64,000 bases of DNA from Candidatus Gastranaerophilales bacterium. Lineage in GTDB: Bacteria; Cyanobacteriota; Vampirovibrionia; Gastranaerophilales; Gastranaerophilaceae. The notes below the pieces were generated by a model that saw only the letters and a list, made by a program, of their open reading frames with translations, made no database searches and had not been told where the DNA came from. The position numbers and the translations under genes are program-made. The stretch is from the NCBI GenBank assembly GCA_905234865.1, contig CAJOJE010000001.1, positions 114,021 through 178,020 on the forward strand, in the 5' to 3' direction. Positions 42,742 through 58,514 of the stretch are shown here, one piece after another (positions within the stretch are counted from its first letter, which is position 1; the number at the start of each line of letters is the position of its first letter).

Positions 42742-42758
42742 TTTTCCTCCTGTAATTT

Positions 42759-42822
42759 AACATACAGAACAAGATTAAACTATCTGTGAGATTGAGATAG
42801 GAATAAATTTGTTCTGTATGTT
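42759..42822. repeat. perfect 14-bp inverted repeat (AACATACAGAACAA / TTGTTCTGTATGTT) with 36-nt spacer
   Basis: Read directly from the sequence. An inner 6-bp stem CTATCT/AGATAG lies in the spacer, and a third partial copy TCTGTATGT sits at 42853-42861. Confidence 0.8.
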
Positions 42823-42924
42823 TTATTTTACAATAAAAAGTTTTATTTTTGTGTCTGTATGTAAAATTTTTATGCTTTTATTCTTCTTTCACGCTAATGT
42901 TGTCCGTGCAAAGGAGGTTTTAGT

Positions 42925-43146
42925 ATGGAAGAAACCGGATACAATATTACTCTGAAAGAGTTTAAGCAGTTAAGTAAATGGGCAGAGGAAGTTTACAATA
43001 TTGCAGTGGTTGTTGATTATTTTTGTGAAACACAGTCGGATAAAGAAGAATGTTACAACTTGGCTCCGGTTGTGAAGTATTTGCATCGCGAAGCAGATTT
43101 GTTGAATGCATTTTTTATCGACCATGAAAAAGATATTGAAATTTAA
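42925..43146 (+). CDS. hypothetical small protein
   Basis: 73 aa ORF preceded by AAGGAGG. No recognisable family. Confidence 0.45.
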   Translation: MEETGYNITLKEFKQLSKWAEEVYNIAVVVDYFCETQSDKEECYNLAPVVKYLHREADLLNAFFIDHEKDIEI

Positions 43147-43192
43147 ACTGCGTTTAAAACTGGTTTAAAACCTTTTTAAACAGCATTTAAAA
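43142..43192. repeat. five TTTAAA(A)C units at exact 11-bp spacing
   Basis: TTTAAA starts at 43142, 43153, 43164, 43175 and 43186. Confidence 0.75.
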
Positions 43193-43282
43193 TTTGTGTC
43201 GGAATGATGCAAAATTTTGACATTGCACTTGATAATTTCCAAAACGCAATCGATTAATGTTAATGGCTGAAAGGAGTATCTT

Positions 43283-43483
43283 ATGATAGAAAAAGATTAT
43301 ATGCTGTATGGAACAAAGATTTTGAATTTAAAAACACAGGAAATTGGGTTACTGATTTGCTTATGGAAAAACAAATATGCTGATAAAACAGTAGATTTTG
43401 CCACCTGTGTAGATAAAACCGGCAAACGATACAATATTGAACTCGATAATATCAGAGGGTTTGAAGATGATTTTGAAAAATAA
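43283..43483 (+). CDS. hypothetical small protein
   Basis: 66 aa ORF preceded by AAGGAG. Its stop overlaps the start of the next ORF. Confidence 0.4.
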   Translation: MIEKDYMLYGTKILNLKTQEIGLLICLWKNKYADKTVDFATCVDKTGKRYNIELDNIRGFEDDFEK

Positions 43484-43700
43484 ATTAACTCGTGAAACTT
43501 TGGATATTCCGTATTCTGAATTCAGAAAAAAGTTTGCAAAAGAAATTCAGGATGCATTTGAAAGTTACCGTCAAACGCAGCTAAATAAATATTCTTACAA
43601 TTTTAAAGACGATAATTCTCTGGAATTCAATTTTTACTTTGAACTACAATGGAATTTTAACCATTTTGGTATGTCAAATTGGTACATTGAAAGAATGTAA
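43467..43700 (+). CDS. hypothetical small protein
   Basis: Start placed at the internal ATG (MILKNKL...), which overlaps the upstream stop and suggests translational coupling. Confidence 0.4.
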   Translation: MILKNKLTRETLDIPYSEFRKKFAKEIQDAFESYRQTQLNKYSYNFKDDNSLEFNFYFELQWNFNHFGMSNWYIERM

Positions 43701-43703
43701 AGG

Positions 43704-44327
43704 TTAAATATTTTGTTTAATAAAATCAAATAAATTTTTTGCAATTATTCTATGTGAGGATTCGTCATAATGCAAACCATCAATATCCGAAGGTGTTGCA
43801 AATTCATTTATATCAAAATATTTACAGCCATTTTTGTTTGCAATTTGTTTAAAAAATTTTCCGACTTCTTTTGATTTAATAATACTTGTTTCATCAAATT
43901 GGCAATTAAAATATCCTTCTAAAATTTTTTCACTTAAAACAACAGGCGGAATAATAATTATATTTTTTACTTTTTGTTGAGCTAATTTGATTAAATTTTC
44001 CAAGCCCTTCTCTATTGTTTCAAAACTTATATCATATTGAGATTGCAAATCATTTGTACCAACGGCAAGAATTAGTATATCTATATTATCAATTTCTAAA
44101 AATATCTTAGGAAAATGTTTTTGAGCAGAAAATAAAATGCCGTCAGGATTATCAACAAAACCAGTTCTGTTACACATTCCCTCATTTATAACTTTATATC
44201 CTGTTCCTAATTTATTCTGTAAAACACCTGTCCAGCGAATATTCTCATCAAATGGTAAACTGTCTTTCGGATTATATCCGAATGTATTTGAATCTCCGTA
44301 GCATACTATGGTTAATTTTCTTTCCAT
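43704..44327 (-). CDS. SGNH/GDSL hydrolase family protein (second copy)
   Basis: GDSNTFGY, GTNDL and DGLHYD blocks. Paralogous to 32922-33530. Start placed at the ATG (MERKL...). Confidence 0.8.
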   Translation of the reverse strand: MERKLTIVCYGDSNTFGYNPKDSLPFDENIRWTGVLQNKLGTGYKVINEGMCNRTGFVDNPDGILFSAQKHFPKIFLEIDNIDILILAVGTNDLQSQYDISFETIEKGLENLIKLAQQKVKNIIIIPPVVLSEKILEGYFNCQFDETSIIKSKEVGKFFKQIANKNGCKYFDINEFATPSDIDGLHYDESSHRIIAKNLFDFIKQNI

Positions 44328-44446
44328 ATTGATATAATAACACAAAAATAAAGTTACTATTGTGATTTTTTTCCCAAATGATGACTTAATCGTGAAAAAG
44401 TGTTCGTGCTTTATACAATCTTAATGTTCTTTATTTATTACATGTA

Positions 44447-44475
44447 TTGACATGAAAAATTTTATATAATAATAT
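44447..44475 (+). promoter_or_regulatory. sigma70-type promoter for adhE
   Basis: TTGACA-N17-TAATAT, about 40 nt upstream of the adhE ATG. Confidence 0.5.
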
Positions 44476-44476
44476 T

Positions 44477-44499
44477 TTGATTAAGGAATTTAATCACAA
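44477..44499. promoter_or_regulatory. imperfect palindrome, candidate Rex operator
   Basis: TTGATTAA-GGAAT-TTAATCACAA lies between the -10 and the RBS. It only partially matches Rex consensus half-sites (TTGTGAA/TTCACAA or TTGTTAA/TTAACAA). Confidence 0.3.
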
Positions 44500-44515
44500 T
44501 TAAGGAGATAAGATT

Positions 44516-47167
44516 ATGCCGAAAGTTAAAGAAAGAACAACAGAAAAAACAACTAAAAATCAAGACAGAAGCGGATTAGTAAACAACATTGATGCTTTGA
44601 ACAATTTGCTCGAACGAGTAAAAAAATCACAAATGGAGTATGCAAAGTTCTCTCAAGAAGATGTGGATAGAATTTTTAAGGCTGCTGCAACTGCTGCCGA
44701 TAAGATGAGAATTCCTCTTGCAAGAATGGCAGTTGAAGATACAGGCATGGGTGTTTTGGAAGATAAAATTATTAAAAATCACTTTGCTTCAGAATATATT
44801 TATAACAAACATAAAAATGCCAAAACTTGCGGTATTATAAATGTTGATAAAATCAACGGTACAAAAACAGTAGCAGAACCTCTCGGTATTGTTGCAGGTA
44901 TTATTCCTACAACAAACCCGACATCAACTGCTATTTTTAAGTCATTAATTTGCTTGAAAACAAGAAACGCTATTGTATTTTCACCGCACCCTCGTGCGAC
45001 AAAATCTACAATAGAAGCAGCTAAAGTAGTTCTTGAAGCTGCTATTGAAGCAGGAGCACCAAAAGATATTATCGGTTGGATAGACGAACCTTCAATGGAA
45101 TTATCTGACGCATTATTACATCACCCCGATGTTGCTTGCATTTTAGCAACAGGTGGTCCGGGCATGGTTAAAGCAGCTTATTCATCAGGGAAACCTGCAT
45201 TAGGTGTTGGTCCGGGTAATACTGCCGCAGTTATTGATGAAACTGCCGATATCAGAATGGCTGTTTCTTCAATTCTTATGTCAAAAACTTTTGATAACGG
45301 TATGATTTGTGCTTCTGAACAGTCAGTAATCGTTGTTGATGATATTTATGAAGAAGTTAAAAAAGAATTCATATATCGTGGTGCATATCTTGTTAAAAAA
45401 GAAGATGAAAAGAAAATGATAGACCTTCCGTTTATTGACCCGGCAAGAGGAACAGCACATCCGTCTATTGTTGGACAACCTGCTCATAAAATTGCTGAAC
45501 TTGCAGGATTCAAGATTCCTGAAGATTCAAAAATTCTTCTTTGTGAAAGAGCAAAAATGGATTGGAATGATCCATTCTCAAGAGAAAAGTTATCACCGAT
45601 TTTAACTATGTATAAAGCTAAATCTTTTGAAGAAGCGACAGAAATTGCACACGAATTGGTATTAAAAGGCGGTGCAGGTCATACATCTGTTCTTTATACA
45701 GATGAAAGAAAATCAGAAAGAATAAATGCTTATGCAGAAAAAATGCCTTCTTGCCGAATCTTAATTAACCAACCTTCTTCACAAGGTGGTATTGGTGATT
45801 TATTTAACTTTAGACTTGAACCGTCTTTATCATTGGGTTGCGGTTCTTGGGGCGGTAACGCAGTATCAGGCAACATAGGTGTTGAACATTTATTGAATTA
45901 TAAAACTGTAGCTGAAAGGAGAGAAAATATGTTATGGTTCAAAGTTCCTCCGAAAGTATATTTCAAACGTGGTGCAACAGATTTGGCACTTAGAGAATTA
46001 CAAGGTAAAAAACGAGCTTTTATTGTAACAGACAGATTCTTATTCAATTCAGGTGCGGTTGATACAATTACAAAAACACTTGATGAAATCGGAATTGACC
46101 ACCAAGTATTCTTTGATGTTAAGCCAGATCCTACAATAGCAACTATTAAACAAGCTATGGAAATAGTAAAACCGTATGAACCTGATGTAATTATTGCATT
46201 AGGCGGTGGTTCACCAATGGATGCAGGTAAGATTATTTGGTTATTATATGAACAACCTGATACAAACTTTGCTGATATTTCAATGAGATTTATGGATATC
46301 AGAAAAAGAATTTGTCAAATTCCTGATTTGGGTAAAAAAGCTACAATGGTTTGTATCCCGACTACATCAGGTACAGGTTCTGAGGTTACACCATTCTCAA
46401 TTATTACTGATGAAAAAACTCATTACAAATATGCAATAGCAGATTATGCACTAACTCCTAATATGGCTATTGTTGACCCTAACTATGTTGACGGTATGCC
46501 AAAAGGTTTAACTGCTGCAAGTGGAATTGATGCACTTGTTCACTCTTTAGAAGCGTATGTATCTTGTATGGCAACAAACTTTACTAATTCAAATGCTCTT
46601 GAAGCAACAAAATTAGTATTCAAATATCTTGCTCGTTCATACAATGAAGGTGCTAACGATCCTATCGCAAGAGAAAAAATGCACTATGCCGCAACTATTG
46701 CAGGTATGTCATTTGCAAATGCTTTCTTAGGTTTATGTCACTCAATGGCTCATAAACTCGGTGCAATGTATTCTATTCCGCATGGTGTAGCTAACGCATT
46801 ATTAATAAGACAAATTATTAAATTCAATGCGGTTGATAAACCTACAAAACAAGCAATATTCCCGCAATATAAATTCCCTAATGCTAAAACTAAATACGGT
46901 CAAATAGCAGATGAATTGAATTTGGGCGGTAAGAATGACGATGAAAAAGTTGAATTATTGATTAAGGCAGTTGATGATTTGATGACAGAAATTAACTTGC
47001 CAAAATCAATAAGAGACTTCGGTGTTGATGAAGGTGAGTTTAAGGCTAATCTTGATGTATTGGTTGAAAGAGCATTTGACGACCAATGCACAGGTGCAAA
47101 CCCAAGATATCCTCTTATGAGTGAAATCAAACAAATCTTCTTAAATGCCTATGAAGGTATTGTCTAA
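44516..47167 (+). CDS. adhE: bifunctional acetaldehyde-CoA/alcohol dehydrogenase
   Basis: 883 aa with an N-terminal aldehyde dehydrogenase domain (catalytic-Cys region GMICASEQS) and a C-terminal Fe-ADH domain (GGGSPMDAGK, His cluster). Confidence 0.95.
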   Translation: MPKVKERTTEKTTKNQDRSGLVNNIDALNNLLERVKKSQMEYAKFSQEDVDRIFKAAATAADKMRIPLARMAVEDTGMGVLEDKIIKNHFASEYIYNKHKNAKTCGIINVDKINGTKTVAEPLGIVAGIIPTTNPTSTAIFKSLICLKTRNAIVFSPHPRATKSTIEAAKVVLEAAIEAGAPKDIIGWIDEPSMELSDALLHHPDVACILATGGPGMVKAAYSSGKPALGVGPGNTAAVIDETADIRMAVSSILMSKTFDNGMICASEQSVIVVDDIYEEVKKEFIYRGAYLVKKEDEKKMIDLPFIDPARGTAHPSIVGQPAHKIAELAGFKIPEDSKILLCERAKMDWNDPFSREKLSPILTMYKAKSFEEATEIAHELVLKGGAGHTSVLYTDERKSERINAYAEKMPSCRILINQPSSQGGIGDLFNFRLEPSLSLGCGSWGGNAVSGNIGVEHLLNYKTVAERRENMLWFKVPPKVYFKRGATDLALRELQGKKRAFIVTDRFLFNSGAVDTITKTLDEIGIDHQVFFDVKPDPTIATIKQAMEIVKPYEPDVIIALGGGSPMDAGKIIWLLYEQPDTNFADISMRFMDIRKRICQIPDLGKKATMVCIPTTSGTGSEVTPFSIITDEKTHYKYAIADYALTPNMAIVDPNYVDGMPKGLTAASGIDALVHSLEAYVSCMATNFTNSNALEATKLVFKYLARSYNEGANDPIAREKMHYAATIAGMSFANAFLGLCHSMAHKLGAMYSIPHGVANALLIRQIIKFNAVDKPTKQAIFPQYKFPNAKTKYGQIADELNLGGKNDDEKVELLIKAVDDLMTEINLPKSIRDFGVDEGEFKANLDVLVERAFDDQCTGANPRYPLMSEIKQIFLNAYEGIV

Positions 47168-47176
47168 ATTGGTTCA

Positions 47177-47222
47177 AAGGCTCTGCTCTACCATACTCTT
47201 GCAGAGCCTTTAACCTTTCTCT
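47177..47222 (+). terminator. rho-independent terminator after adhE
   Basis: AAGGCTCTGC / GCAGAGCCTT 10-bp stem followed by a T-rich tail. Confidence 0.6.
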
Positions 47223-47278
47223 TTACAGTAGTAAAATAAAAAATAAGAGTTGGAAAAGAACAAAGGAGTAATGAAAAA

Positions 47279-47911
47279 ATGAGTATTCCTGACAAAGTTG
47301 TAAATCGTTTAACCTTATATCATTTTATTCTTGATGATTTAAGAGAAGATGAACAATATATTTCAAGTTCAAAAATTGCACAATTATTAAAACTTGATAA
47401 TTCGCAAATAAGAAAAGACTTGAAATATCTTGATAAACCGGGTAAGGCTCGTTTAGGATATGATGCAAAAATTCTTAAAAAAGCAATAGAAGAAAAACTT
47501 GGTTTTAAGCAAACTAAAGACGCATTTATAATCGGAGCAGGTAATTTAGGTTCAGCTCTTGTAAAATACTCCAATTTTCAAGATTACGGTTTAAATGTTC
47601 TCGCTATGTTTGATAGCGATCCGAATAAAATTGGAACAACAATAAACGGAAAAGAAGTTTTTAATATAACAAAAGTAGGAAATTTATCCCAAAGATTAGG
47701 TGTTGATATTGCAATATTGACCGTTCCGAGAGAATCGGCAAAGAGTGTTGCAAACTATCTGGCAGGTTCAGGAATAAAGTATATTTGGAATTTTACCACT
47801 TGTATATTAGATGTTCCTGAAGATGTACATGTTTGGAACGAAAACCTAATTGGAAATTTTTTACAATTCACAAATAATGACGAGGTTAAAAATAAGAAAA
47901 ATGGCAAATGA
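47279..47911 (+). CDS. rex: redox-sensing transcriptional repressor Rex
   Basis: N-terminal winged-helix (NRLTLYHFIL..SSSKIAQLL), Rossmann fold GAGNLGSAL, 210 aa. Confidence 0.9.
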   Translation: MSIPDKVVNRLTLYHFILDDLREDEQYISSSKIAQLLKLDNSQIRKDLKYLDKPGKARLGYDAKILKKAIEEKLGFKQTKDAFIIGAGNLGSALVKYSNFQDYGLNVLAMFDSDPNKIGTTINGKEVFNITKVGNLSQRLGVDIAILTVPRESAKSVANYLAGSGIKYIWNFTTCILDVPEDVHVWNENLIGNFLQFTNNDEVKNKKNGK

Positions 47912-48134
47912 AATTAAAGTTTGTATGGGTAGTGCCTGTTTTGCAAAAGGCAACCAAGAAAATTTAGAATTTATTAAACAATATATTGAAGAAAACAATT
48001 TAGAATCCGTTGTGACAATCACAGGCTCATTATGTGAAGGCAAATGTGATATCGGACCAAGAATTATTGTTAATGATAAAGAATACACAAATGTTACAAC
48101 CGAAGATTTAGAAAAAATATTAAAGGGGCTCTAA
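47901..48134 (+). CDS. thioredoxin-like [2Fe-2S] ferredoxin (NuoE/HndA-like)
   Basis: Start placed at MANEIKVC. Cys pattern C-x4-C ... C-x3-C (CMGSAC ... CEGKC). Overlaps the rex stop by 11 nt. Confidence 0.75.
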   Translation: MANEIKVCMGSACFAKGNQENLEFIKQYIEENNLESVVTITGSLCEGKCDIGPRIIVNDKEYTNVTTEDLEKILKGL

Positions 48135-48135
48135 T

Positions 48136-49875
48136 ATGGAAAAACAATATCCTGTCTATACTCTAAAAAATGAATGTAATGACTGCTATAAGTGTATAAG
48201 AGGTTGTCATATAAAAGCGATTAAAATTCAACAAGGCTCTGCTTCGGTTATAAATGAAAAATGTATAGCTTGCGGACATTGTGTAAAAGTTTGCCCCGCA
48301 GGAGCAAAAAGAGTAAGAAGTGATATTGATAAAGTTAAAACACTATTAATTGCCGGTAAAAAAGTATATGTATCACTCGCTCCAAGTTGGGCAGGTGTTT
48401 ATAATATCCCAAAAGAAAGAATGATAGCAGTTCTTAAAAAACTTGGCTTTGCAGGTGTATCTGAAACAGCACTCGGAGCTCAAGAAGTTTCTATTCAAAC
48501 TGCTAAAATGTTAAATAATGCACAGAAAGGTTTATTTATATCATCGGCTTGTCCTGTTATTGATGATTATGTAAGACTTTATAAACCGGAGTTTGCAAAA
48601 TGTATAACCCCTGTTGCTTCCCCTGCTTTAACGCATTGTGCCTTATTAAAAGATATGTTAGGTGAAGATATAAAAGTTGTATTTATAGGACCATGCATAG
48701 CAAAGAAAAATGAAGCTGATGAACACCCTGATTTAATGAGTGCGGCTTTAACATTTGACGAATTAAACTATTGGATAAAAGAAGAATTTATTGATGTTGA
48801 AAATATAGAAACCGATGAAAGCTGCCATTTTGTTCCAGAAAGTTCTTATGAAGGAGCTTTATATCCTATTGAAGGCGGTATGAATGAAACAATTAAAAGA
48901 GTCGGTATTGAAAAAGATGATGTAACATTTATTGCAGTAAGTTCTTTGGAAGATTTTGATAAATCACTACAAAACATAAATCCTGACAAAGTTGAAAATA
49001 AGATTTTTGTTGAAGCATTAGGTTGTTCAGGCGGTTGTATAAACGGTCCTTGCTTATCAAGTGATAAATCAAGAATTCTGATTACATCAGATATTTATGC
49101 AAATACTCAATACAGAAATGAAGTTCCGAAAGAGCCAAGAAAAGTTGTTGAAATCGAATATATACCAAACCCGGTTGAAAAATTGGAATATTCTCTTGAA
49201 CAGGTTTCAAATGCACTTAAAAAGATAAGCAAACACTCGGAAGAAGATGAGCTTAACTGTTCAGGATGCGGATACGCAAGCTGCCGAGAATTTGTTAATG
49301 CACTTATTGCAGGAGATGCAGAACCTTCTCAATGCGTTTCTTATATGAGAAAAATAGCAGTAAGAAAAGCAGCTGCAATGTTAAGATGTATGCCTTCTGC
49401 CGTTGTTATTGTTGATTCTGATTTGCAAATCGTTGAAGCAAATGATTCATTTGAACACATGTTTTTATCCGAAGAAATGTATGAAGTATTTACATCTCGT
49501 CAAGACGGTATGACAGGTGCTTGTATAGATAGAATTGTTCCATTCCCTGAACTCTTTAAATCAGCTCTCGATACAGGCAAAGAAATTCATCAGGAGCACT
49601 ATGCAATAAAAGATAAAGTATATGACATAAGCATATTTACTATTGAAGATAATGAACTTGTTGGTGCCGTAATTTCTTATGTTACAAAATCAGAAATTGA
49701 TAGATCAAAAATTGCACAAAAAGCAAGAGAAGTTATTACCAAAAATATTGCAACTGTTCAGGAAATCGCAAGTTTATTGGGTGAACATATGGTTGAAACA
49801 GAACTGCTTTTAAGTTCTATCGCTGAAGGTTATGAAGGAGCAAACAAAGGAACAAACGAAGGGGATAAGAAGTAA
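48136..49875 (+). CDS. putative sensory [FeFe]-hydrogenase (HydS-type) with C-terminal PAS domain
   Basis: Two N-terminal 4Fe-4S motifs. H-cluster motifs are SSACP, GPCIAKKNE and GCSGGCINGP. An extra Cx2Cx4Cx16C motif is followed by a PAS-like domain. Confidence 0.85.
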   Translation: MEKQYPVYTLKNECNDCYKCIRGCHIKAIKIQQGSASVINEKCIACGHCVKVCPAGAKRVRSDIDKVKTLLIAGKKVYVSLAPSWAGVYNIPKERMIAVLKKLGFAGVSETALGAQEVSIQTAKMLNNAQKGLFISSACPVIDDYVRLYKPEFAKCITPVASPALTHCALLKDMLGEDIKVVFIGPCIAKKNEADEHPDLMSAALTFDELNYWIKEEFIDVENIETDESCHFVPESSYEGALYPIEGGMNETIKRVGIEKDDVTFIAVSSLEDFDKSLQNINPDKVENKIFVEALGCSGGCINGPCLSSDKSRILITSDIYANTQYRNEVPKEPRKVVEIEYIPNPVEKLEYSLEQVSNALKKISKHSEEDELNCSGCGYASCREFVNALIAGDAEPSQCVSYMRKIAVRKAAAMLRCMPSAVVIVDSDLQIVEANDSFEHMFLSEEMYEVFTSRQDGMTGACIDRIVPFPELFKSALDTGKEIHQEHYAIKDKVYDISIFTIEDNELVGAVISYVTKSEIDRSKIAQKAREVITKNIATVQEIASLLGEHMVETELLLSSIAEGYEGANKGTNEGDKK

Positions 49876-51032
49876 TGTTCATTGATATAGCTTGTTCACA
49901 AAAAAAGAAATATAACCAAAATGCTTATGGAGACTTCTTTGCTTCAAACAGATTCCCTAATATGAACAGAGTCGTTGCGGTATTATCCGACGGTCTTGGA
50001 AGCGGAATTAAAGCAAACATCCTTGCTTGTATGACTTCAACTATGCTTCTTAAATTTATGGAAAGCCATTCTGATATAGAAAAATCTTGTGAAATCATTA
50101 TGAACTCATTACCTGTTTGTAAAGTCAGAGGTATTAGTTATTCAACATTTTCTGCGATTGATTGTTTTGAGGACGGCAAAGCAAAAATAGTTGAAGAAGG
50201 AAACCCTGATTTTATTTGGATAAGAAATGGTGAAGTTTTGAAACCGGAATACCAAACAATTCAATCAAAAGACTTTAAAAACAGAAAAATGAAAGTTTAT
50301 AATATTAAACTTGAAAAATACGATAGAATTATTTTCTGCTCAGATGGTGCGACACAAGTTGCAATGGGAACGAAAGAATATCCTTTAGGGTTAGAGAGAA
50401 ACGGACTTATAAAAATTATTCTGCGTAAGTTAGAGGCTGATCCTGAAATATCATCAAAAGATTTAAGCGAATTTTTGGTTAAACAAATAGAATTTATTGC
50501 TCCAAAAAGAGAACTCAAAGATGATACTTCAATTCTATCTATTTATTGCAGAGACCCAAGAGAGTCTTTAATATTTACAGGACCACCTTTCCATAGTGAA
50601 AAAGATAGTTTCTATGCTAAAACATTTATGGAATTCAATGGTAAAAAAGCAATTTCAGGCGGAACAACAGCTAACATTATTTCAAGAGAACTTAATATTC
50701 CTGTTGTTGCTGATATGTCCACAAACAGAGGTAAACTTCCCGGATTATTAAAAATGGAAGGTGTTGATTTGGTTACGGAAGGGATTTTGACACTAACCAA
50801 GACATTAGAATATCTGCGCATGGGTGAAAGTGAGAACGATGCTGCAAGAACATTAATGAATTTCTTACTTGATTCTGATGTAATAAGTTTCTTGGTTGGA
50901 GCTCAAATGAATAAAGCACACTACGATCCGAACCTGCCTATTGAAATTGAAATCAGAAAAAATATTATAAAACAAATGGCAAAAGTTTTAGAAGAAAAAT
51001 ATCTGAAAAAAGTAGAGGTACAATTTATATAG
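49875..51032 (+). CDS. PP2C/SpoIIE-family serine phosphatase
   Basis: NAYGDFF..VAVLSDGLGSGIKANI.. and ..IIFCSDG.. ..DDTSIL.. metal-binding Asp blocks. TAATG overlap with the hydS-like gene. Confidence 0.8.
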   Translation: MFIDIACSQKKKYNQNAYGDFFASNRFPNMNRVVAVLSDGLGSGIKANILACMTSTMLLKFMESHSDIEKSCEIIMNSLPVCKVRGISYSTFSAIDCFEDGKAKIVEEGNPDFIWIRNGEVLKPEYQTIQSKDFKNRKMKVYNIKLEKYDRIIFCSDGATQVAMGTKEYPLGLERNGLIKIILRKLEADPEISSKDLSEFLVKQIEFIAPKRELKDDTSILSIYCRDPRESLIFTGPPFHSEKDSFYAKTFMEFNGKKAISGGTTANIISRELNIPVVADMSTNRGKLPGLLKMEGVDLVTEGILTLTKTLEYLRMGESENDAARTLMNFLLDSDVISFLVGAQMNKAHYDPNLPIEIEIRKNIIKQMAKVLEEKYLKKVEVQFI

Positions 51033-51102
51033 ATTGTGCCGCAGAAACAAAAATGTTGAATTTTTGTTTCGAGGTACACAAATTAATAAAAGGAGTCAAA
51101 AA

Positions 51103-51363
51103 ATGGAAAAGATTTCAGTAAAAGTATGTACAGGAACAACCTGTTTCGTAATGGGTGGAGCTAATTTGCAAGAATTACACGACATTATTCCGAAAAAATA
51201 TGGTGATAAAGTTGAACTTACTGCTTCAAATTGCTTGGGATTATGCTCTATAAATTGGGAATATTCAAAAGCACCTTATGTTAAAGTTAATGAAGAAGTT
51301 GTATCTGAAGCAACTGCTGAAAAAGTTATAGAAGAAATAGACAGACAACTTGCAAAACAATAG
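51103..51363 (+). CDS. thioredoxin-like [2Fe-2S] ferredoxin (second copy)
   Basis: Start placed at MEKISVKVC, preceded by AAAGGAG. Cys pattern CTGTTC ... CLGLC. Confidence 0.75.
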   Translation: MEKISVKVCTGTTCFVMGGANLQELHDIIPKKYGDKVELTASNCLGLCSINWEYSKAPYVKVNEEVVSEATAEKVIEEIDRQLAKQ

Positions 51364-51373
51364 GAATTTTTAA

Positions 51374-52828
51374 ATGAATAATTTAGGACAAGCGATACAC
51401 ATAAAAAAAGAAATTTTAGTCAGAATAATTAAGGCTTTTTTATCCGATGATTTTGAACATCAGGCAAGACTAATTCCTTATGATATGCGACCAAAAGGAA
51501 TGGAAGTCCCTTATAGGTGTTGTGTTTATAAAGAACGTGCCATTATAAAAGACAGAACTATTGCAGGACTCGGTTTCCCTATTGAAGAAGATGATGAAAG
51601 AGTATCGCTATCCGATTATGCAAAACAAGCATTAGAAAGAACTCAAATCAGCGAAAAGAATTTGACCGTTCTTCAAGCCGCTTGTAAGGGTTGTGCTACC
51701 AATAGAATTTATGTAACTGATTTATGTCAGGGCTGTGTTGCAAGACCTTGCCAAACCACTTGTAAATTCGGTGCAATTTCTATTGTAAACGGAAGATCCG
51801 TTATTGATGATACAAAATGCAAAAAATGTCAGATGTGCGTTAATGCTTGTCCTTATAAAGCTATTGTAAAAATTTCAGTTCCCTGTGAAGATTCCTGTCC
51901 TGTCGGAGCAATAAAGAAAGATGAAACAGGGTTTGCAAGCATAGATTATGATAAATGTATAAATTGCGGAAGATGTACTGCCGCTTGTCCGTTTGGTGCG
52001 GTTCACGAAAGAAGTCAAATTATTGATATATTAAAAGCAATTAAATCCGATAAAAAAGTAATCGCAATGATAGCACCTTCAATAATCGGTCAATTCCCCG
52101 GAAACATTTATCAATTAAAAACAGCAATAATAAATTCAGGTTTTGATGATGTTTATGAAGTTGCTCAAGGAGCAGATGTTACGGCAAATACAGAAGCAAA
52201 AGAATTTATTGAAAGAATGGAAGAAGGTCAAAACTTTATGACAACTTCTTGCTGTGCCGGATATAATCAACTAATCAAGAAACACTTGAGTGAAATTAAG
52301 CCGTTTGTATCTGATACAAAGACTCCTCTATACTATACGGCTGAAATAGTGAAAAAAGAACACAGTAACGCAGTTACCGTTTTTGTAAGTCCATGTGTTG
52401 CAAAACGTGCAGAAGGATATGAAAACCCAAATGTCGATTATGTTATGAGTTATGAAGAACTTGGTGCTTTATTTGTTGCAAAGAAAATTCAAATTACAGA
52501 ATTGGAAGAAAGCAAATATATTGTTGAATCTTCTAAACAAGGTCGTAATTTTGGATATTCAGGCGGTGTAGCCGAATCAGTTAAAAAATCTCTTAAAGAT
52601 GAAGATTCTGTTAAGCCCTGTATAATAAACGGATTAAATAAAGACAGTATAAAACAGTTAAAGAAATATGCAGCAAGCGGAGTTTGCGAAGGCTGTAATT
52701 TGGTTGAAGTTATGTGCTGTGAAGGCGGTTGCATTGGCGGTAATGCAACATTAAATAATCAAAAAACCGCCAAAAAGTTAATTGATAATTTTACTCAAAA
52801 CAGTGAAGATATTAAAAAGGTAGAATAA
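51374..52828 (+). CDS. [FeFe]-hydrogenase, catalytic type with multiple N-terminal 4Fe-4S motifs
   Basis: H-cluster motifs TSCCAG, SPCVAKRAE and EVMCCEGGCIGG. Several CxxCxxCxxxCP ferredoxin motifs. 484 aa. Confidence 0.88.
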   Translation: MNNLGQAIHIKKEILVRIIKAFLSDDFEHQARLIPYDMRPKGMEVPYRCCVYKERAIIKDRTIAGLGFPIEEDDERVSLSDYAKQALERTQISEKNLTVLQAACKGCATNRIYVTDLCQGCVARPCQTTCKFGAISIVNGRSVIDDTKCKKCQMCVNACPYKAIVKISVPCEDSCPVGAIKKDETGFASIDYDKCINCGRCTAACPFGAVHERSQIIDILKAIKSDKKVIAMIAPSIIGQFPGNIYQLKTAIINSGFDDVYEVAQGADVTANTEAKEFIERMEEGQNFMTTSCCAGYNQLIKKHLSEIKPFVSDTKTPLYYTAEIVKKEHSNAVTVFVSPCVAKRAEGYENPNVDYVMSYEELGALFVAKKIQITELEESKYIVESSKQGRNFGYSGGVAESVKKSLKDEDSVKPCIINGLNKDSIKQLKKYAASGVCEGCNLVEVMCCEGGCIGGNATLNNQKTAKKLIDNFTQNSEDIKKVE

Positions 52829-53080
52829 ATGAGTGTATTTGAAGCAGGAATGATGATTTGTTTCGGTGTAAGCTGGCCTATTGCGGCTTGCAAAACATAC
52901 AAAGCAAAGAGTGTAAAAGGTAAAAGTTTAACATTTTCCTGCTTAATTCTTGTCGGTTATATTTGCGGAGTCATACATAAAATCTTTTTCTATTATGATT
53001 GGGTTTTATGGCTTTATGTATTGAATATGTTTTTCTTGCTTACTGATATGTTTTTACATTTAAAATACAGAAATAAGTAG
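52829..53080 (+). CDS. small three-TM membrane protein (PQ-loop/SemiSWEET-like?)
   Basis: 83 aa whose ATG directly follows the hydrogenase stop. The SWPIAACKTYKAKSVKGKSL segment is reminiscent of PQ-loop motifs, but this assignment is weak. Confidence 0.45.
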   Translation: MSVFEAGMMICFGVSWPIAACKTYKAKSVKGKSLTFSCLILVGYICGVIHKIFFYYDWVLWLYVLNMFFLLTDMFLHLKYRNK

Positions 53081-53293
53081 TTTGTGTTTATTATAAAAAG
53101 GGGCGTGTATGGTGTCAATTAACAAATCTGAAAAAGAAATTAAAAAGATAAAAACAAATCAGGATACAATGATGATTTTTCAAAATATCTTGAAAATCAG
53201 ACAAATAAAACTACCGTAAACGGTCAAGATATAAAGCCGTTTTCGTGGTATAAGAAAATTTTAGGACTAATGAAATAAGAAAGAGGGGCTAAA

Positions 53294-54487
53294 ATGATAA
53301 ATTGGGAAAATGATTTAAACATTAATGAAGTCAGAGAAATCAGAACAAGAACAACAGTTTACTTTGGCTGTGGTGCCATTCAGAAGATAAATGATATTGC
53401 AAAAATCTATGCTGAACGAGGAATAAATAAAGTTGTTGTTATGTCAGGCAGAAACGCATATAAATCAACAGGTGCGTGGGGATTTGTTGAGAAAGCTCTT
53501 AAAGACAATAAAATTGAATACATAAATTATGATAAAGTTACACCAAACCCGACAACCGATGCTATTGACGAAGCAACCGCATTGGCTCGTGATTTTGGGG
53601 CAAAAGCAGTTATTACAATAGGCGGTGGTTCACCGACTGATGCCGGAAAATCTGTTGCAATTCTTTTAAAATACCCGAATGAAACAGGTAGCAGCTTGTA
53701 TGAATTCAAATTCACACCGACAAAAGCCGTTCCTATTGTTGCAATTAATTTAACTCACGGAACAGGAAGTGAAACAAACAGATTTGCAGTTGCAACAATT
53801 TTAGAAAAGAATTATAAACCTGCTATCGCTTACGATTGTATTTACCCTGAATTTGCTATTGATGATCCTGATTTGATGATAGGACTATCGCCAAAACAAA
53901 CAAGATATGTTTCAATAGATGCAGTTAATCACGTAATAGAAGCTGCAACATCAACAGTTGCTTCACCATATTCTGTAACATTAGCAAGACAAGTAATTGA
54001 ACTTGTCGGGAAATATCTGCCAAAAGCGATTCAAAATCCTGCTGATAAAGAAGCAAGATACTACTTGTGTTACGCTGCTTTAATGGGCGGAGTTTGCTTT
54101 GATAACGGATTATTACATTATACTCACGCACTTGAACACCCATTGAGTGCTATGAAACCTGATTTTTCACATGGTTTAGGATTGGCTATTTTACTTCCTG
54201 CCGTTATTAAAAATATTTATCCTGCCAAAGCAGAAACTTTGCAATATATACTTGAACCTATTGTCAAAGATACTACAGATGCTCAAAAAACAGCAGAAGG
54301 TGTTTATGAATGGCTTAAATCTGTTGACGTTCCAAACAAGCTAAAAGATGAAGGATTTAGTGAAGCTGATGTTGAAAAATTAACAGAACTTGCGTTTACT
54401 ACACCTTCTCTGGATGGCTTATTAGGAATAGCACCGACAAAAGCAACAAAAGAAGCTGTATCTACTATTTATAGAGAGTCATTATAG
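53294..54487 (+). CDS. iron-containing alcohol dehydrogenase
   Basis: GGGSPTDAGK motif, conserved His cluster (HALEHPLS..HG), 397 aa. Confidence 0.9.
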   Translation: MINWENDLNINEVREIRTRTTVYFGCGAIQKINDIAKIYAERGINKVVVMSGRNAYKSTGAWGFVEKALKDNKIEYINYDKVTPNPTTDAIDEATALARDFGAKAVITIGGGSPTDAGKSVAILLKYPNETGSSLYEFKFTPTKAVPIVAINLTHGTGSETNRFAVATILEKNYKPAIAYDCIYPEFAIDDPDLMIGLSPKQTRYVSIDAVNHVIEAATSTVASPYSVTLARQVIELVGKYLPKAIQNPADKEARYYLCYAALMGGVCFDNGLLHYTHALEHPLSAMKPDFSHGLGLAILLPAVIKNIYPAKAETLQYILEPIVKDTTDAQKTAEGVYEWLKSVDVPNKLKDEGFSEADVEKLTELAFTTPSLDGLLGIAPTKATKEAVSTIYRESL

Positions 54488-54504
54488 GTATGTAAATTTA
54501 CCAG

Positions 54505-54535
54505 AGCACCCGATGTATTTCGGGTGCTTTATCAT
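54505..54535 (+). terminator. rho-independent terminator after Fe-ADH
   Basis: AGCACCCG / CGGGTGCT stem followed by a T-rich tail. Confidence 0.6.
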
Positions 54536-54947
54536 TCCATTCCCAAAATTTCTCTTTCAATTTGTCGAACAATATCCGGAGATAAGCAGCCTGTTGGTTT
54601 TTGTTTGGGAGTTTGTTCTTGTTGCAGAGAGTCTGTATATTGTTTTACAAGCGGAATCTCTTTTAAAATATTTATCAGTGAATATATTTCCGGAGGAGGA
54701 GTTTTTTGATTATTATCAATATCCGTAGATATTTTCTGCATCATTTTTCTTGCAAAATCAAGCAACTCCTCGCTGAAGCGATATTTTGTATGCTCAACTT
54801 CAAATCGCTTTTCATCCCATTTGTATTCCTTTTTCCAATAAAATAAAATCCTGCGAGAAAGACCTAGTTCCAAACCAATCTCTGCCAGAGATTTTTGTCG
54901 TAAATGTACATATGTTCAGCTTGTGTCAGTTGGTTGTATTTTGTCAT
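54532..54947 (-). pseudogene. HTH DNA-binding gene split by a frameshift in an A5 run
   Basis: An ATG at 54947 opens a 27-codon frame (MTKYNQLTQAEHMYIYDKN..) that ends at a TAG at 54866-54864. The track ORF (54532-54873) begins in the middle of an HTH (..SLAEIGLELGLSRRILFYWKKEYKWDE) in another frame. One extra A at 54892-54896 would fuse the two. Confidence 0.5.
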
Positions 54948-54949
54948 CG

Positions 54950-55504
54950 TTATACCTCAAAAATTATTCTGTCTAAACTGTATTCATTCTTTTCTGTCAG
55001 CCGTTTTACATAAAAATTTGTGTAATTTTTAATCAAACCTTCTGCTTTACAGTATTTTAAAAATTGTTTTAATAAAGCCATTGTATTTTTTAACCTTCTT
55101 GGCTTAAAATCTCTTTCTAAAAATGCGTTATGAATAGCAATAATATCCTTTGTTTCAAATTTAGTAATGCTATTTTTCTTTAAAATCGGTATAATATCTA
55201 ATTTAAAAGCTGCTTTATAAATTCTGTTTGTTTTCTTGGAACAGTATTTTGCAACATAATTATTTATGAAATATTGAACGGCATCTTCTATTGTTATTAC
55301 GACTTTTTTGTTTGAATTATCAATAAATACACCGAATTTTAATCTTTCATCAGTTTCAACGTATTTATACAAACCCTGTTCAAAGACTATTTTACCCTCA
55401 TTCAAAAGGTGTTCAAGTTCTGTTTTACAATCGCATTCTGCAATCATTTCGATTTCATCAAGAGTAAATTCTTTTAAATGTTGCGCCAATTTTTCTATGT
55501 TCAT
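54950..55504 (-). CDS. stand-alone phage-integrase N-terminal SAM-like (core-binding) domain protein
   Basis: Residues from about 70-165 (TIEDAVQYFINNYV..KKTNRIYKAAFKLDIIPIL..ITKFETKDIIAIHNAFL..RRLKNTMALLKQFLKYCKAEGLI) follow the tyrosine-recombinase core-binding pattern. There is no catalytic R..HxxR..Y domain. Confidence 0.5.
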   Translation of the reverse strand: MNIEKLAQHLKEFTLDEIEMIAECDCKTELEHLLNEGKIVFEQGLYKYVETDERLKFGVFIDNSNKKVVITIEDAVQYFINNYVAKYCSKKTNRIYKAAFKLDIIPILKKNSITKFETKDIIAIHNAFLERDFKPRRLKNTMALLKQFLKYCKAEGLIKNYTNFYVKRLTEKNEYSLDRIIFEV

Positions 55505-56181
55505 ATTATTTGACTTATGACCTCCATATTTATTTCTGTTAAATTATTATCTTTAGCAAATGTTTCCATTTGGTTTATCAATTGAGCAATTTGCCTGAAC
55601 CTATTAAATTTTGAATGTATATATTCAACAGCATCGGGGGTAAATTTTATTTCTGATAATTGGTTAATAATCTGAGATAAATCATTCACTCCAAAGGTTT
55701 CAAATTTTAAAATCTCCGAGAATCTGTCATAAAGATGCTTGTATCTTTCGAGTTTTCTGTGTGCCAAACCCATTCCGATAAAAATTATCGGACAGCCGGT
55801 TTCATCGTGAATATCACGCAGAGTTTCAATTGTTTTGTAGTTATTCATCAAATAATCAATTTCATCAATAAAAATTATCTGCGGATTTTGTTTCAGCTTT
55901 TTAACCACAATATTAAAATTATCAGAAGTCAAAAATCTTGGAATCTCGTCAAGTTCTTTAACCATCTCTTCCAAGAGCCATCTGCCTGTCATAAGATTAG
56001 ATGCTCTTAAATAAATTCCGTCGTACTTGCATGCAAGCCATAATGCAGTTTGAGATTTTCCAAGTCCTGGCTCACCGTAAACAAGTCCCATCTTAGGAAT
56101 ATTCTTTGGTTTATTTATCAAATTTTCAACTAATCCGATAAAGTTTTTCACATTTTGCGTTTTTACAAAAATCTTATTCAT
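55501..56181 (-). CDS. AAA+ transposition ATPase (MuB/TniB/TnsC-like)
   Basis: Walker A GEPGLGKS and Walker B IIFIDEID. Overlaps the transposase stop. Confidence 0.8.
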   Translation of the reverse strand: MNKIFVKTQNVKNFIGLVENLINKPKNIPKMGLVYGEPGLGKSQTALWLACKYDGIYLRASNLMTGRWLLEEMVKELDEIPRFLTSDNFNIVVKKLKQNPQIIFIDEIDYLMNNYKTIETLRDIHDETGCPIIFIGMGLAHRKLERYKHLYDRFSEILKFETFGVNDLSQIINQLSEIKFTPDAVEYIHSKFNRFRQIAQLINQMETFAKDNNLTEINMEVISQII

Positions 56182-57880
56182 AAAGCAGTTTGTACTCCTT
56201 TGTTTGCTTAAACTGTTCTATCCACTCATCTTGCGGATTATGGATTATTAAGTATTCATATTTATCAGCATTATTTTTAAACATCTTTTGAACACCATTT
56301 AAACGGGTATTAAACACTTCTTGAAGAGGTAAATCTAAAGATTGTGTTTCTATTTTTGTTTCCAAGAGTTTTATATCTTCTGTTTCCAGATATTTTTTGA
56401 CAGATTCTACAGTTTTCTTTTTTAATTGCCGTTGCCTTACAATCTTCTGCTTATAATCCTCATAGTCTTTGACGTCGCCAAGTAATTTTACCATCGGATG
56501 CGTTTCAGTTACACGTTCTGCTGTGCATAAATATTCGCCTTTTGGGGTGAAAACCTTAATGTTTGTAATGTCAAATAAGTTATATTTAATTAGTACTTTA
56601 CTTTTAAATCCGTATAATCTTTCATCGAAATAATCGCAGTTTAAAAATCTGATTCCATTTCTTTGAATTGTTTTGACTTCGGTTGCAAGCATTAAATCGT
56701 CAAGAGTATCAATATCAATATTCTGCCGTTTTCTTTCAGATAAAACTTCTGTGATTGTTTTATCCGGAGCATTTGGGCAGGGTTGAGAATTCTTAAAACT
56801 TAACCACATATCAATCATGTTTATTGTTTCATCTATTGTTGGGATATATTCATTATGAAGATTTTTGTGAAATTTTTCATTTCGCATCATATATGCCGGC
56901 TTATTATTTATTGATGAACCTATATAACTTGGCAATAATTTTTCAAATCCTTCCTGAAATTCTTTAAAAAATCTTTCAATAACTTTTGCTCTTGCATTGT
57001 ATGGTCTTGCAAAGACTGTTTCTATTCCGAGTTTTGAATACAATCCCTGAAATCCTAATTCAGTAAATCCTTTATCATCAGTAAAATACTTAGCTCTAAA
57101 AGCTCTGCCGTTATCCTGATATACAACTTTCGGTATCATATCAAGATTGATTATTGAATTACGCAAAGCACTTGCAATACATTGTGTATTTTCTTCAAGC
57201 ATTATTTCATAACCGACTAATGCTGTTGATTTCCAATCCAAAAAGCCAACAAGAGTTGCTCTGCATGGTTTTCCTGTAAACGGATTTATTACCTGAAACG
57301 CTAATTTATGCCCATCAGCGACAAGAATATCCCCGACTTCAAGCAGACTTGCATCACGTTTTATATATGGTTCAACTTTGTCAGAAAGTGCTTTTTCTCC
57401 ATCACGTGCAAGTATCCATTTATCATAATTGTTATTTTTAAACCATTTTGCATATCTTCTGAATGTAATATCAGTTGGAATAAAGTTCTGTCCTTGTTCT
57501 TTTAATTTGTATTTCGTAAGAGCAATTGCTTTTCCAATAGACAATCTATTGGGGTGCAAAAGTAATCCCATAAATATTTTTATTTCGTCATCATTAAGTA
57601 CGGTTCTGTAATCATTAACACTACTATATTTATACTGTGGCAATAACTTCGTATAATCTTCTATTCCGTTTAACATTGCATACCAACGATGCAAACTGCC
57701 GCGAGATATTTTACCTATAATCTCAAACAAGTGTGAATTTGAAGTATTATACAATTTTACAAAATCATAATCAGCTTGAAGTTTGTTTTTTGATTTCTTC
57801 CTGAACTCAAGCCACTGATGAACTACATCAAGTCTTGCTAAAGCGATTTGTTTACATTTTTCGGGAGTAAATTCTGCCAT
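56174..57880 (-). CDS. DDE transposase, MuA/TnsB/TniA-like (rve core)
   Basis: Start placed at MAEFTPEK, preceded by AAGGAG. DDE candidates are VADGHKL, YQDNGRAF and AKVIERFF. N-terminal HTH region and a Mu-transposase-like C-terminal beta domain. Confidence 0.88.
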   Translation of the reverse strand: MAEFTPEKCKQIALARLDVVHQWLEFRKKSKNKLQADYDFVKLYNTSNSHLFEIIGKISRGSLHRWYAMLNGIEDYTKLLPQYKYSSVNDYRTVLNDDEIKIFMGLLLHPNRLSIGKAIALTKYKLKEQGQNFIPTDITFRRYAKWFKNNNYDKWILARDGEKALSDKVEPYIKRDASLLEVGDILVADGHKLAFQVINPFTGKPCRATLVGFLDWKSTALVGYEIMLEENTQCIASALRNSIINLDMIPKVVYQDNGRAFRAKYFTDDKGFTELGFQGLYSKLGIETVFARPYNARAKVIERFFKEFQEGFEKLLPSYIGSSINNKPAYMMRNEKFHKNLHNEYIPTIDETINMIDMWLSFKNSQPCPNAPDKTITEVLSERKRQNIDIDTLDDLMLATEVKTIQRNGIRFLNCDYFDERLYGFKSKVLIKYNLFDITNIKVFTPKGEYLCTAERVTETHPMVKLLGDVKDYEDYKQKIVRQRQLKKKTVESVKKYLETEDIKLLETKIETQSLDLPLQEVFNTRLNGVQKMFKNNADKYEYLIIHNPQDEWIEQFKQTKEYKLLYE

Positions 57881-58080
57881 GTGTATGCTCCTTTGCATAC
57901 ACATTAATCGCTCTTTGTTACGGAAACATCAAGTCCTAAATCTCTTTTCCGCCTGTCAAATCAAAGATTTGAAACGGCGGCATCGTAGTGTTTCGTGCCC
58001 TGCTCGTCTTGCCCTACAGCAAGCCGACACCGGCACTTCACACCGGCTCACGCATCTTAATCTCAGAGACATTTCGACAC

Positions 58081-58240
58081 ATATCAAAATGCAAGATAAT
58101 TTATTTTTGCACTATATTGCACTATTCTGCACTCAAAAAATATCAAACACCAAGCGAGATAGATGCTGAAACGAGTTCAGCATGACTAAATATCAGTGCA
58201 AAATGGTGCAAAAATCAGGACAAAAGTGCAAGAATAGTCC
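58081..58240. repeat. phased array of AGTGCA/TGCACT hexamer repeats around a central hairpin
   Basis: TGCACT at 58108, 58118 and 58128, and GTGCAA at 58197, 58207 and 58227, all on a 10-bp register, plus TGCAAG at 58090. Hairpin ATGCTGAA/TTCAGCAT at 58163-58183. Confidence 0.7.
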
Positions 58241-58343
58241 GGTACATCTTAAGACTATAAACCTGCCTCTATCGCCCTAAAATTAGGCATACTTACAACA
58301 AAACTCCCATCCAAACAGTCCGGAAAGGTTATACCTCCTTACT

Positions 58344-58370
58344 AAAAAACCCGCTATACTAAGCGGGTTT
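58344..58370 (-). terminator. rho-independent terminator after tRNA-Leu
   Basis: CCCGCT / AGCGGG stem followed by T6 on the minus strand. Confidence 0.7.
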
Positions 58371-58374
58371 AAAT

Positions 58375-58461
58375 TGCCCTGGGCCGGACTTGAACCGGCA
58401 CGAGGGTATTAGCCTCATTGGATTTTAAGTCCAACGTGTCTACCGATTTCACCACCAGGGC
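58375..58461 (-). tRNA. tRNA-Leu (anticodon UAA)
   Basis: The reverse complement begins GCCCUGGUGGUGAAAUCGGUAGACAC. Anticodon stem UUGGA/UCCAA with loop CUUAAAA, a long variable arm, and a GGUUCAAGUCC T-arm. Confidence 0.9.
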
Positions 58462-58482
58462 AGACAGACACTTTATATTTAT

Positions 58483-58510
58483 ATTTTATACAATCAATTT
58501 AAAATGTCAA
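58483..58510 (-). promoter_or_regulatory. sigma70-type promoter for tRNA-Leu
   Basis: Minus strand reads TTGACA-N16-TAAAAT, about 22 nt upstream of the tRNA 5-prime end. Confidence 0.5.
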
Positions 58511-58514
58511 AAAG

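Follow-up and report, generated by a model that had tools for sequence, protein, structure and literature searches.

The stretch analysed here, hereafter the window, comprises 64,000 nucleotides of contig CAJOJE010000001.1 from Candidatus Gastranaerophilales bacterium. An earlier note, made from the sequence alone, had singled out four minus-strand open reading frames (ORFs) beside a tRNA-Leu gene as an unusual transposition module. All four were confirmed where the note had placed them, and we refer to them as A (a transposase), B (an AAA+ ATPase), C (a relative of tyrosine recombinases) and D (a helix-turn-helix (HTH) protein). They had been taken for a four-gene unit, but in fact make up the left arm of a larger element, a complete DDE transposon with cargo, of the MuA/TnsB plus AAA+ type, which occupies positions 42751-58333 (15,583 bp; Table 1) and possesses both ends, a target-site duplication, three core genes at its right end (Z, X and Y) and approximately 11 kb of cargo between D and Y. 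The element belongs to a large family of gut Gastranaerophilales (Melainabacteria), across which C appears, from the way its sequence varies, to choose which tRNA gene is targeted.

Transposition genes, ends and tRNA linkage

A and B form a transposase-ATPase pair of the Mu/Tn7 type, as the earlier note had proposed. Their best profiles are PHROG 310 (Mu-like transposase, 1.6e-84) and the MuB-like PHROG 296 (2.6e-39), respectively. A also matches Pfam Mu-transpos_C (8e-14) and, weakly, rve, and carries the DDE motifs ADGH (196), QDNG (263) and IERF (308). B matches AAA_22 (3e-12), TniB (2.6e-7) and AAA, and both of its Walker motifs are intact; no TnsC was among its matches to PDB sequences. 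A and B overlap by 8 nt and B and C by 4 nt, and the order A-B-C is kept in the loci that hold the whole module. The label TnsB/MuA-like was right for A at the level of the superfamily, but its closest relatives are transposases of transposable phages rather than TnsB: the nearest annotated ones are the Bacillus BalMu-1 and Fusobacterium phage transposases (27-29% identity, E up to 3e-32), and the sole match among sequences of solved structures was ShCAST TnsB (E 0.01).

The left end of the element lies 41 bp beyond the 3' end of tRNA-Leu(taa), directly after the terminator hairpin of the tRNA, and this succession of tRNA, hairpin and insertion point recurs in most related loci. The left terminus reads TATAACCTTTCCGGAC at 58333, and the left end holds two related sites, L1 and L2, 81 bp apart. 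The left terminus of the family could be placed because one element, identical in A-B-C-D and cargo and recognized by its C homologue P0068, is found behind four different left flanks, which diverge at that point: tRNA-Asp (L001 and L002), tRNA-Gly (L004) and a tRNA-like 3' remnant (L003, a locus that begins with an integrase gene). At the other side, a conserved 50-bp right-end motif (window copy 42751-42799) is present in nine related loci, downstream of C in seven of them (L037, L054, L059, L069, L087, L092 and L097) and directly upstream of the left end of a second element in two (L061 and L096). Searches for an inverted copy of the left terminus in the window or in approximately 100 loci (exact and three-mismatch 16-mers, self-BLAST, fuzzy 13-mers and an L1/L2 position weight matrix) found none, because the right end differs from the left. 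While the right end was missing a truncated element had been considered, an idea dropped once the conserved right-end block was located at L061 and L096; a conserved block of about 400 bp downstream of D, also tried as the right end, is actually the X and Y genes with their promoter.

Perfect 5-bp duplications flank the element in the window (GGAGG) and those at L054 (AGAGA) and L059 (ACCAC). In the window GGAGG is a ribosome-binding site at the right flank while no gene follows the tRNA-side copy, which fits a target-site duplication. The gene at the right flank (41554-42741, minus strand) encodes a flavodiiron-like protein with Lactamase_B, ODP and flavodoxin domains. It retains its ribosome-binding site solely as the duplicated target sequence. 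With the sequence natively upstream of it displaced by 15.6 kb, the gene may rely for its expression on read-out from the right end of the element. Two further observations concern the ends. In sample ERZ1667847 the assembly breaks inside tRNA-Leu (end of L026) and about 100 bp inside the right end (start of L110), which could reflect either polymorphism of the element or repeats. In three other loci, stubs of 28-60 nt of left terminus abut the full left end of another element (L034, 7116-7171; L041, 7188-7250; L102, ~7100-7200). The stubs suggest that tRNA sites already occupied have been hit again, with insertion into the end of the resident element itself, and target immunity is possibly weak or lacking.

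Relatives were sought by scanning one genome per species, which yielded at least 206. Among the best 80 of these at least 206, most are labelled Gastranaerophilales, Gastranaerophilaceae, Melainabacteria, Vampirovibrio or 'Cyanobacteria' metagenome-assembled genomes; many of the remainder are 'uncultured bacterium', and a few are Fusobacterium, Muribaculaceae, Lachnospiraceae or Acinetobacter. Several genomes carry two to three copies of the element. The note had read the position beside a tRNA as homing, and the survey of homologous modules bears this out. Linkage was counted in 54 independent species-level loci for which sufficient sequence was available upstream: in 30 of them the start of A is preceded, within 700 bp, by a tRNA on the same strand, and in nine more within 2.5 kb, while the 1.2 Mb of sequence fetched contains only eight other tRNAs. 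Sixteen anticodon species are used as targets, with Ala-ggc, Asp-gtc, Gln-ctg, Gln-ttg, Gly-ccc, Gly-gcc, Gly-tcc, His-gtg, Ile-gat, Leu-cag, Leu-gag, Leu-taa, Met-cat, Thr-cgt and Tyr-gta among them. The left terminus falls 25-100 bp past the tRNA, and the left end always points toward the tRNA 3' end. At L003 the tRNA-like 3' remnant by an integrase island suffices as a target.

Table 1. Coordinates of the element and its surroundings in the window
Feature	Position	Strand	Details
tRNA-Leu(taa)	58374..58462	-	ARAGORN; Rfam tRNA, 62 bits; intact; presumed attachment target
Terminator-like hairpin of the tRNA	58346..58372	-	AAACCCGCTTAGTATAGCGGGTTTTTT; from sequence; between tRNA and insertion point
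Target-site duplication, left copy	58334..58338		CCTCC on the plus strand, GGAGG in element orientation
Left end	58233..58333	-	Terminal site L1 TATAACCTTTCCGGACTGTT at 58314-58333; L2 at 58233-58252
Operator-like block	58090..58235	-	Three TGCAC repeats (10-bp spacing), hairpin, three inverted TGCAC repeats
Optional structured insert	57944..58056	-	About 110 nt; two hairpins in the 5' leader of A
A, MuA/TnsB-superfamily DDE transposase	56174..57880	-	568 aa from the likely start ATG 57880, as placed by the gene caller on an identical contig; ORF up to 57904
B, minimal MuB/TniB-type AAA+ ATPase	55501..56181	-	226 aa; Walker A GEPGLGKS, Walker B IIFIDEID
C, proposed target selector	54950..55504	-	184 aa; winged helix, linker, tyrosine-recombinase core-binding four-helix domain
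D, HTH protein	54532..54948	-	139 aa in relatives; here split near 54905 into 27-aa and 113-aa ORFs
Cargo	43704..54487		Pfam; precomputed Pfam of identical contig
Right-arm core genes, inward-reading	42925..43700	+	Z 42925-43146 (73 aa), X 43283-43483 (66 aa), Y 43467-43700 (77 aa)
TTTAAAAC-type repeats	~43140-43200	+	Among the right-arm core genes
Right end	42751..42875	+	Terminus TGTAATTTAACATACAGAACAAG...; inverted terminal-site copies at 42804-42827 and 42854-42868
Target-site duplication, right copy	42746..42750		CCTCC; also ribosome-binding site of the flavodiiron-like gene 41554..42741 (-)

Protein C and the choice of tRNA gene

The gene for C stands where TniQ stands in tniABQ and tnsBC-tniQ operons, and its product is related to tyrosine integrases. 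Phage_int_SAM_3 scores just under the Pfam cut-off in the window copy (2e-4) and above it in most homologues, and the PHROG_1 integrase profile matches the core-binding part only (7e-12). The AlphaFold2 model (predicted local distance difference test 80) consists of a winged helix (residues 1-48), a disordered linker (52-66) and a four-helix bundle (72-154). At the level of single domains Foldseek aligned C with the core-binding domain of lambda Int (1z19_B, 75-356; probability 0.99, root-mean-square deviation 2.8 Å, 94 columns), with the integrase N-domains 2kiw and 2kj5, and with winged-helix regulators. Whole-chain E-values were 0.1 or worse, because C is two domains on a disordered linker, and only the domain-level matches were used.

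A profile search of 1.8 billion representatives found full-length proteins (325-365 aa) whose alignment with C runs from residue 3 to about residue 176 and which carry the Pfam Phage_integrase catalytic domain after the aligned part; this makes C an integrase relative that ends at the start of the catalytic domain. The tyrosine integrases P0139, P0203, P0159 and P0224, for instance, in which an N-terminal winged helix is combined with a SAM_3 core-binding domain, are 22-30% identical to C, winged helix included, and have the catalytic domain just where C ends; Pfam gave no Phage_integrase match in C, nor is there a catalytic domain with an R-H-R-Y site. The proposal that C corresponds to only the DNA-binding half of a tyrosine recombinase thus agrees with model, fold comparison and alignment alike, and C is neither a TniQ, to which it has no match, nor an unrelated fold. 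It had also been described as a fragment; this does not hold, as C is a conserved stand-alone protein, with 838 homologues among the candidates of a word-index protein search, almost all of them 183-185 aa long. Neither the 50,697 phage genomes nor the 72,556 plasmids searched contain C, and IMG/VR holds a single degraded copy (L028), so riddled with frameshifts that it gave no information. One 417-aa protein (P0134) was considered as a B-C fusion and rejected for want of similarity to B.

Within the family, the sequence of C follows the tRNA. In 32 elements with an assigned tRNA, we subtracted the protein identity between elements at different tRNAs from that between elements at the same tRNA and assessed the difference by permutation. 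It was largest for residues 51-135 of C (0.33; 70% at the same tRNA vs 37% at different ones, p<=2e-4), followed by residues 136-184 (0.20, p<=2e-4), and small for residues 1-50 (0.04, p=0.002); it was absent from A (-0.005, p=0.65) and B (0.01, p=0.21), and D gave 0.05 (p=0.06). Clustering of the variable region of C yields types whose targets have a common T-arm sequence despite different anticodons. One type goes with Asp-gtc, Gly-tcc and Gly-ccc (T-arm GCGAGTTCGAG(C/T)CTCG), in another Ile-gat is joined by Tyr-gta and His-gtg, and Leu-taa has a C type of its own. C does not follow the ends, since elements with several C types have one and the same L1 sequence (TATAGGTTTTCAGGACAGTT).

The idea that C might be a new kind of target selector, already raised in the earlier note, is the best supported one because the sequence of C tracks the tRNA and those of A and B do not. 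In the best reading of these comparisons, C would be the exapted DNA-binding half of an integrase, acting as target selector in place of TniQ. Its variation would be most simply explained if C recognizes the tRNA gene by the T-arm and acceptor part, while its invariant parts may contact B or A.

Accessory genes and cargo

In relatives D is an intact protein akin to phage small-terminase-like and Mu gp27 DNA-binding proteins (Terminase_5, MerR_1, PHROG 756). In the window a 1-nt deletion that shortens a run of six A to five splits the gene and removes half of the HTH. The fourth gene had been correctly described as an HTH gene, but the 113-aa ORF (54873..54532), which has weak HTH matches, is only the 3' part of a broken 139-aa gene. 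Three contigs have the same truncated product. Some elements lack D or have it elsewhere, and some of these are still located at tRNAs. The architecture of the module also varies at L045, L059 (10546-12450), L055, L060, L062, L076 and L108: some of these elements have about 1.9 kb between C and D, and others have no D after C and a D-like paralogue (28-34% identical) upstream of A.

The Z/X/Y arm is conserved in approximately 40 related loci, with X up to 97% identical; Y alone has a family match (phrog_34337, 3e-16). The region has its own promoter, and in L076 and L097 X and Y sit upstream of A. The operator-like block with its TGCAC repeats precedes the promoter region of A and is invariant when relatives are aligned. 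The probable role of D, Z, X and Y is that of regulators, or of accessory factors binding the ends, with the TGCAC and TTTAAAAC repeats as their sites of action.

The structured insert in the leader of A is present in six loci (the window, L048, L043, L034, L045 and L076) and absent from most. It is GC-rich, has no counterpart in Rfam and folds with a minimum free energy of -45.4 kcal/mol (z -3.3); six base pairs have compensatory changes (seen in L045), and the L034 copy has one more hairpin at its apex. L019 and L009 have, near the same position, a structured insert of another kind, about 140 nt long (GGCGG...CCGCC). Guidance by an RNA made from the leader was considered and rejected, the insert being optional and near-identical in elements at different tRNAs.

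The cargo in the window encodes a GDSL lipase (minus strand), AdhE and an Fe alcohol dehydrogenase, a Rex-like regulator, two [FeFe]-hydrogenase-like proteins of 579 and 484 aa with their 2Fe-2S partners (one thioredoxin-like, and a second 2Fe-2S protein), a SpoIIE phosphatase and a PQ-loop protein. Homologues of this cargo were found in none of the other elements of the family. Relatives carry restriction-modification and Lamassu-like defence genes, polysaccharide clusters and aryl-polyene clusters. The P0068 element (L001-L008), for example, brings a DpnII-type restriction-modification system, Nmad3/DUF6994, a Lamassu-like gene (LmuB_C) and AAA_21 to tRNA-Asp at two loci, to tRNA-Gly-ccc and to the tRNA-like 3' remnant, and exceeds 13 kb without its right end being reached.

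The absences listed in the earlier note extend to the whole element. Pfam and the precomputed Pfam annotation of an identical contig show no TnsA-type domain in any gene of 42751-58333, and no TniQ, serine resolvase (TniR), catalytic integrase or cas domain in the element. The 15.6 kb contain no phage head, tail, lysis or packaging (terminase-large) genes, there is no CRISPR repeat array in 42000-59000, and Rfam found no RNA other than the tRNA. Outside the element, beyond the tRNA, the window encodes a 456-aa protein with long low-complexity repeats, NGTNGTNG(L/R)NGTNG (59488-60858, minus strand), and directly upstream a 112-aa paralogue of its N-terminus (60899-61237, minus strand); GC content is locally raised there, to 0.43.

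Proposed mechanism and relation to known systems

By analogy with Mu, Tn7 and type V-K CRISPR-associated transposons (CASTs), we propose the following mechanism, in which DNA binding by C, its contact with B and the chemistry of transposition are all inferred. C would bind a particular tRNA gene within its 3' half, at the T-arm and acceptor region, and the conserved N- and C-terminal parts of C would recruit or position B. Assembled next to the tRNA gene, B would then activate A bound to the dissimilar left and right ends. A would join the 3' ends of the element to target positions 5 bp apart, with the left end toward the tRNA and 25-100 bp downstream of it, which would give a single orientation, a 5-bp duplication and an undamaged tRNA. 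Because TnsA is lacking, only the 3' ends would be expected to be cut, in a Mu- or V-K-style nick-and-join reaction followed by replication or repair. We regard this account as a whole, a complete transposon for which C selects the tRNA, B is recruited and A inserts, as probable. With a little more reserve, we also think it likely that site-specific targeting was here invented independently among MuA/TnsB-AAA+ transposons. Instead of TniQ/TnsD or CRISPR, the compact module (A, B, C and perhaps D, about 1,100 aa in all) would use the DNA-binding half of a tRNA-site integrase, without its catalytic domain; this half would read T-arms and would have been retargeted to at least 16 anticodon species through the exchange of some 130 residues.

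Several points weigh against this account. All support for it is computational. The left and right termini have in common only about TRTAA and an ACAG core, and the 5-bp duplications match in three of the seven elements with both ends and differ in the other four; for the latter we infer recombination between tandem copies of the element, given the short stretches of another left end at L034, L041 and L102. An empty site has not come to light. Exact-protein look-ups of three flanking genes gave occupied sites only. The empty junction is reconstructed as ...GGGTTTTTTAGTAAGGAGGAAAAATGAATTT..., and two junction patterns had zero matches in metagenomes of the Joint Genome Institute (JGI), a result that is uninformative as the species may be absent there. 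No upstream tRNA is present at 15 of the 54 loci, some of which lie behind the right end of another element. The 32 elements used for covariation are mutually related, with A and B of the same elements serving as internal controls, and Thr-cgt is an outlier, the other targets of its C type having a different T-stem. Finally, one element lies 55, 60, 77 and 83 bp from the tRNA end at its different sites, so that spacing is not fixed. In Tn7 and CASTs it is tightly fixed, and the contrast makes a strict 'molecular ruler' model less convincing; a filament of the MuB kind agrees better with loose spacing.

The loose spacing would also suit the view that C is an end-binding or architectural accessory, or a regulator, of the kind of an arm-binding or Xis-like helper. 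The tRNA would then be chosen by D, by its D-like paralogue, by Z/X/Y or by the N-terminal domains of A. Core-binding domains normally bind the core sites of their own element, dissimilar ends might need an extra end-binding factor, and D is an HTH protein with a weak, non-significant association with the tRNA. Nevertheless, the variable region of C follows the tRNA and not the ends, A and B show no such association, and D is missing or relocated in some elements at tRNAs and frameshifted in the cleanly inserted window copy; we thus consider this role for C unlikely. Far less probable still is that the locus is the leftover of a Mu-like prophage, truncated as the earlier note had allowed, or an integrase-borne island that entered by site-specific recombination, in which case tRNA linkage would say nothing about transposition. 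In its favour, the PHROG families matched by A, B, D and Y are phage ones, integrases classically use tRNA 3' ends as their sites, and C descends from integrases. Yet there is neither a catalytic integrase nor any capsid, tail, lysis or terminase-large gene between the ends, the phage and plasmid searches described above found no C and IMG/VR gave only the one degraded copy, the boundaries are transposon ends with 5-bp duplications outside the tRNA rather than a duplicated tRNA 3' segment, and identical elements occupy different tRNAs. Selection of the tRNA gene by C remains the preferred reading, and a separate matter is whether the window copy can still move. The note had considered a decaying element; the transposon is complete, with D alone frameshifted, although for this reason it may no longer move autonomously. 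That it arrived by the proposed mechanism and is now a fixed, non-autonomous relic, its cargo effectively chromosomal, is a serious possibility that we do not quite favour. The split in D, found on three contigs, speaks for it, as does a site that is occupied on every contig of the species and has no empty counterpart in the JGI metagenomes. On the other side, A, B, C, Z, X, Y, both ends and the duplication are intact, some relatives do without D at its usual position, the three contigs with truncated D may not be independent, and the assembly breaks at both ends of the element in ERZ1667847 could reflect polymorphism.

Targeted DDE transposons such as Tn7 and CASTs are studied as drivers of genomic islands and as tools for the insertion of large DNA. 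To our knowledge, almost all of those known route target choice through TniQ/TnsD. If our reading is true, the family would provide a second, structurally unrelated class of adaptor, made of the core-binding half of an integrase and a minimal MuB-like ATPase. It would also offer a natural series of retargeted elements in which to study how a site is handed over from selector to ATPase to transposase, and a naturally modular, protein-programmable 'safe-harbour' transposase system. This family seems to have a major part in shaping the genomes of Gastranaerophilales, moving defence islands, polysaccharide and aryl-polyene clusters and, in the window, a hydrogenase/AdhE fermentation block, and it links two uses of tRNA genes as safe sites, integrase recombination and transposition. 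In the literature searched, a limited library, we found no published description of it.

Some Tn7-like transposons home to tRNA genes through selectors of the TniQ/TnsD family, and type V-K CASTs home to sites downstream of tRNA genes. With both groups the element shares a MuA/TnsB-superfamily transposase, an AAA+ adaptor and a selector gene in third position, an oriented insertion tens of bp downstream of an intact tRNA, a 5-bp duplication, asymmetric ends and large variable cargo, including defence systems in relatives; like the V-K CASTs (TnsB-TnsC-TniQ-Cas12k) it is devoid of TnsA. It differs from them in having no TniQ, TnsD, Cas protein or CRISPR array, its putative selector being of the integrase winged-helix and core-binding fold, in a transposase that is closer to phage transposases (27-29%) than to ShCAST TnsB, in the bare AAA+ core (226 aa) that constitutes B, and in its loose target spacing (25-100 bp). 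The element therefore behaves like a tRNA-homing transposon of the Tn7-like/V-K kind while having neither the TnsA nor the TniQ by which such elements are defined. The Tn5053/Tn402 (TniA-TniB-TniQ-TniR) and Tn552 transposons have the same order of transposase, ATPase and selector and, in Tn5053, a 5-bp duplication, but the present element lacks TniQ, the serine resolvase and a res site, and its target is a tRNA gene rather than a plasmid res site.

With Mu and other transposable phages the element has in common the overlapping transposase-ATPase pair, the 5-bp duplication, several subterminal sites and operator-like repeats near the left end. It has no morphogenesis or lysis genes, however, and its insertion is site-directed whereas that of Mu is near random. 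Cargo-carrying, non-phage Mu transposons with directed targeting and an HTH protein have been reported as CasMu-I and CasMu-V (Altae-Tran et al. 2023, PMC10910872; PMC11656645). Directed non-phage Mu transposons had previously been described only with CRISPR (PMC10910872, PMC11656645), whereas the present element would target by protein, with no CRISPR component.

The closest precedent for C itself is TnsF of Tn6022 and the Tsy element (Faure et al. 2023, Mol Cell, PMC10293859). TnsF is a non-catalytic relative of tyrosine recombinases by which a DDE transposon binds its target DNA, and is the only recombinase-derived selector described. At approximately 500 aa, it combines N-terminal zinc fingers with two core-binding domains and part of a catalytic domain, and it acts through TniQ in a TnsABC element that targets comM (PMC10293859). 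In contrast, C has 184 aa, one winged helix and one core-binding domain, with no catalytic remnant and no TniQ partner, and it appears to target tRNA genes, having diversified to many of them.

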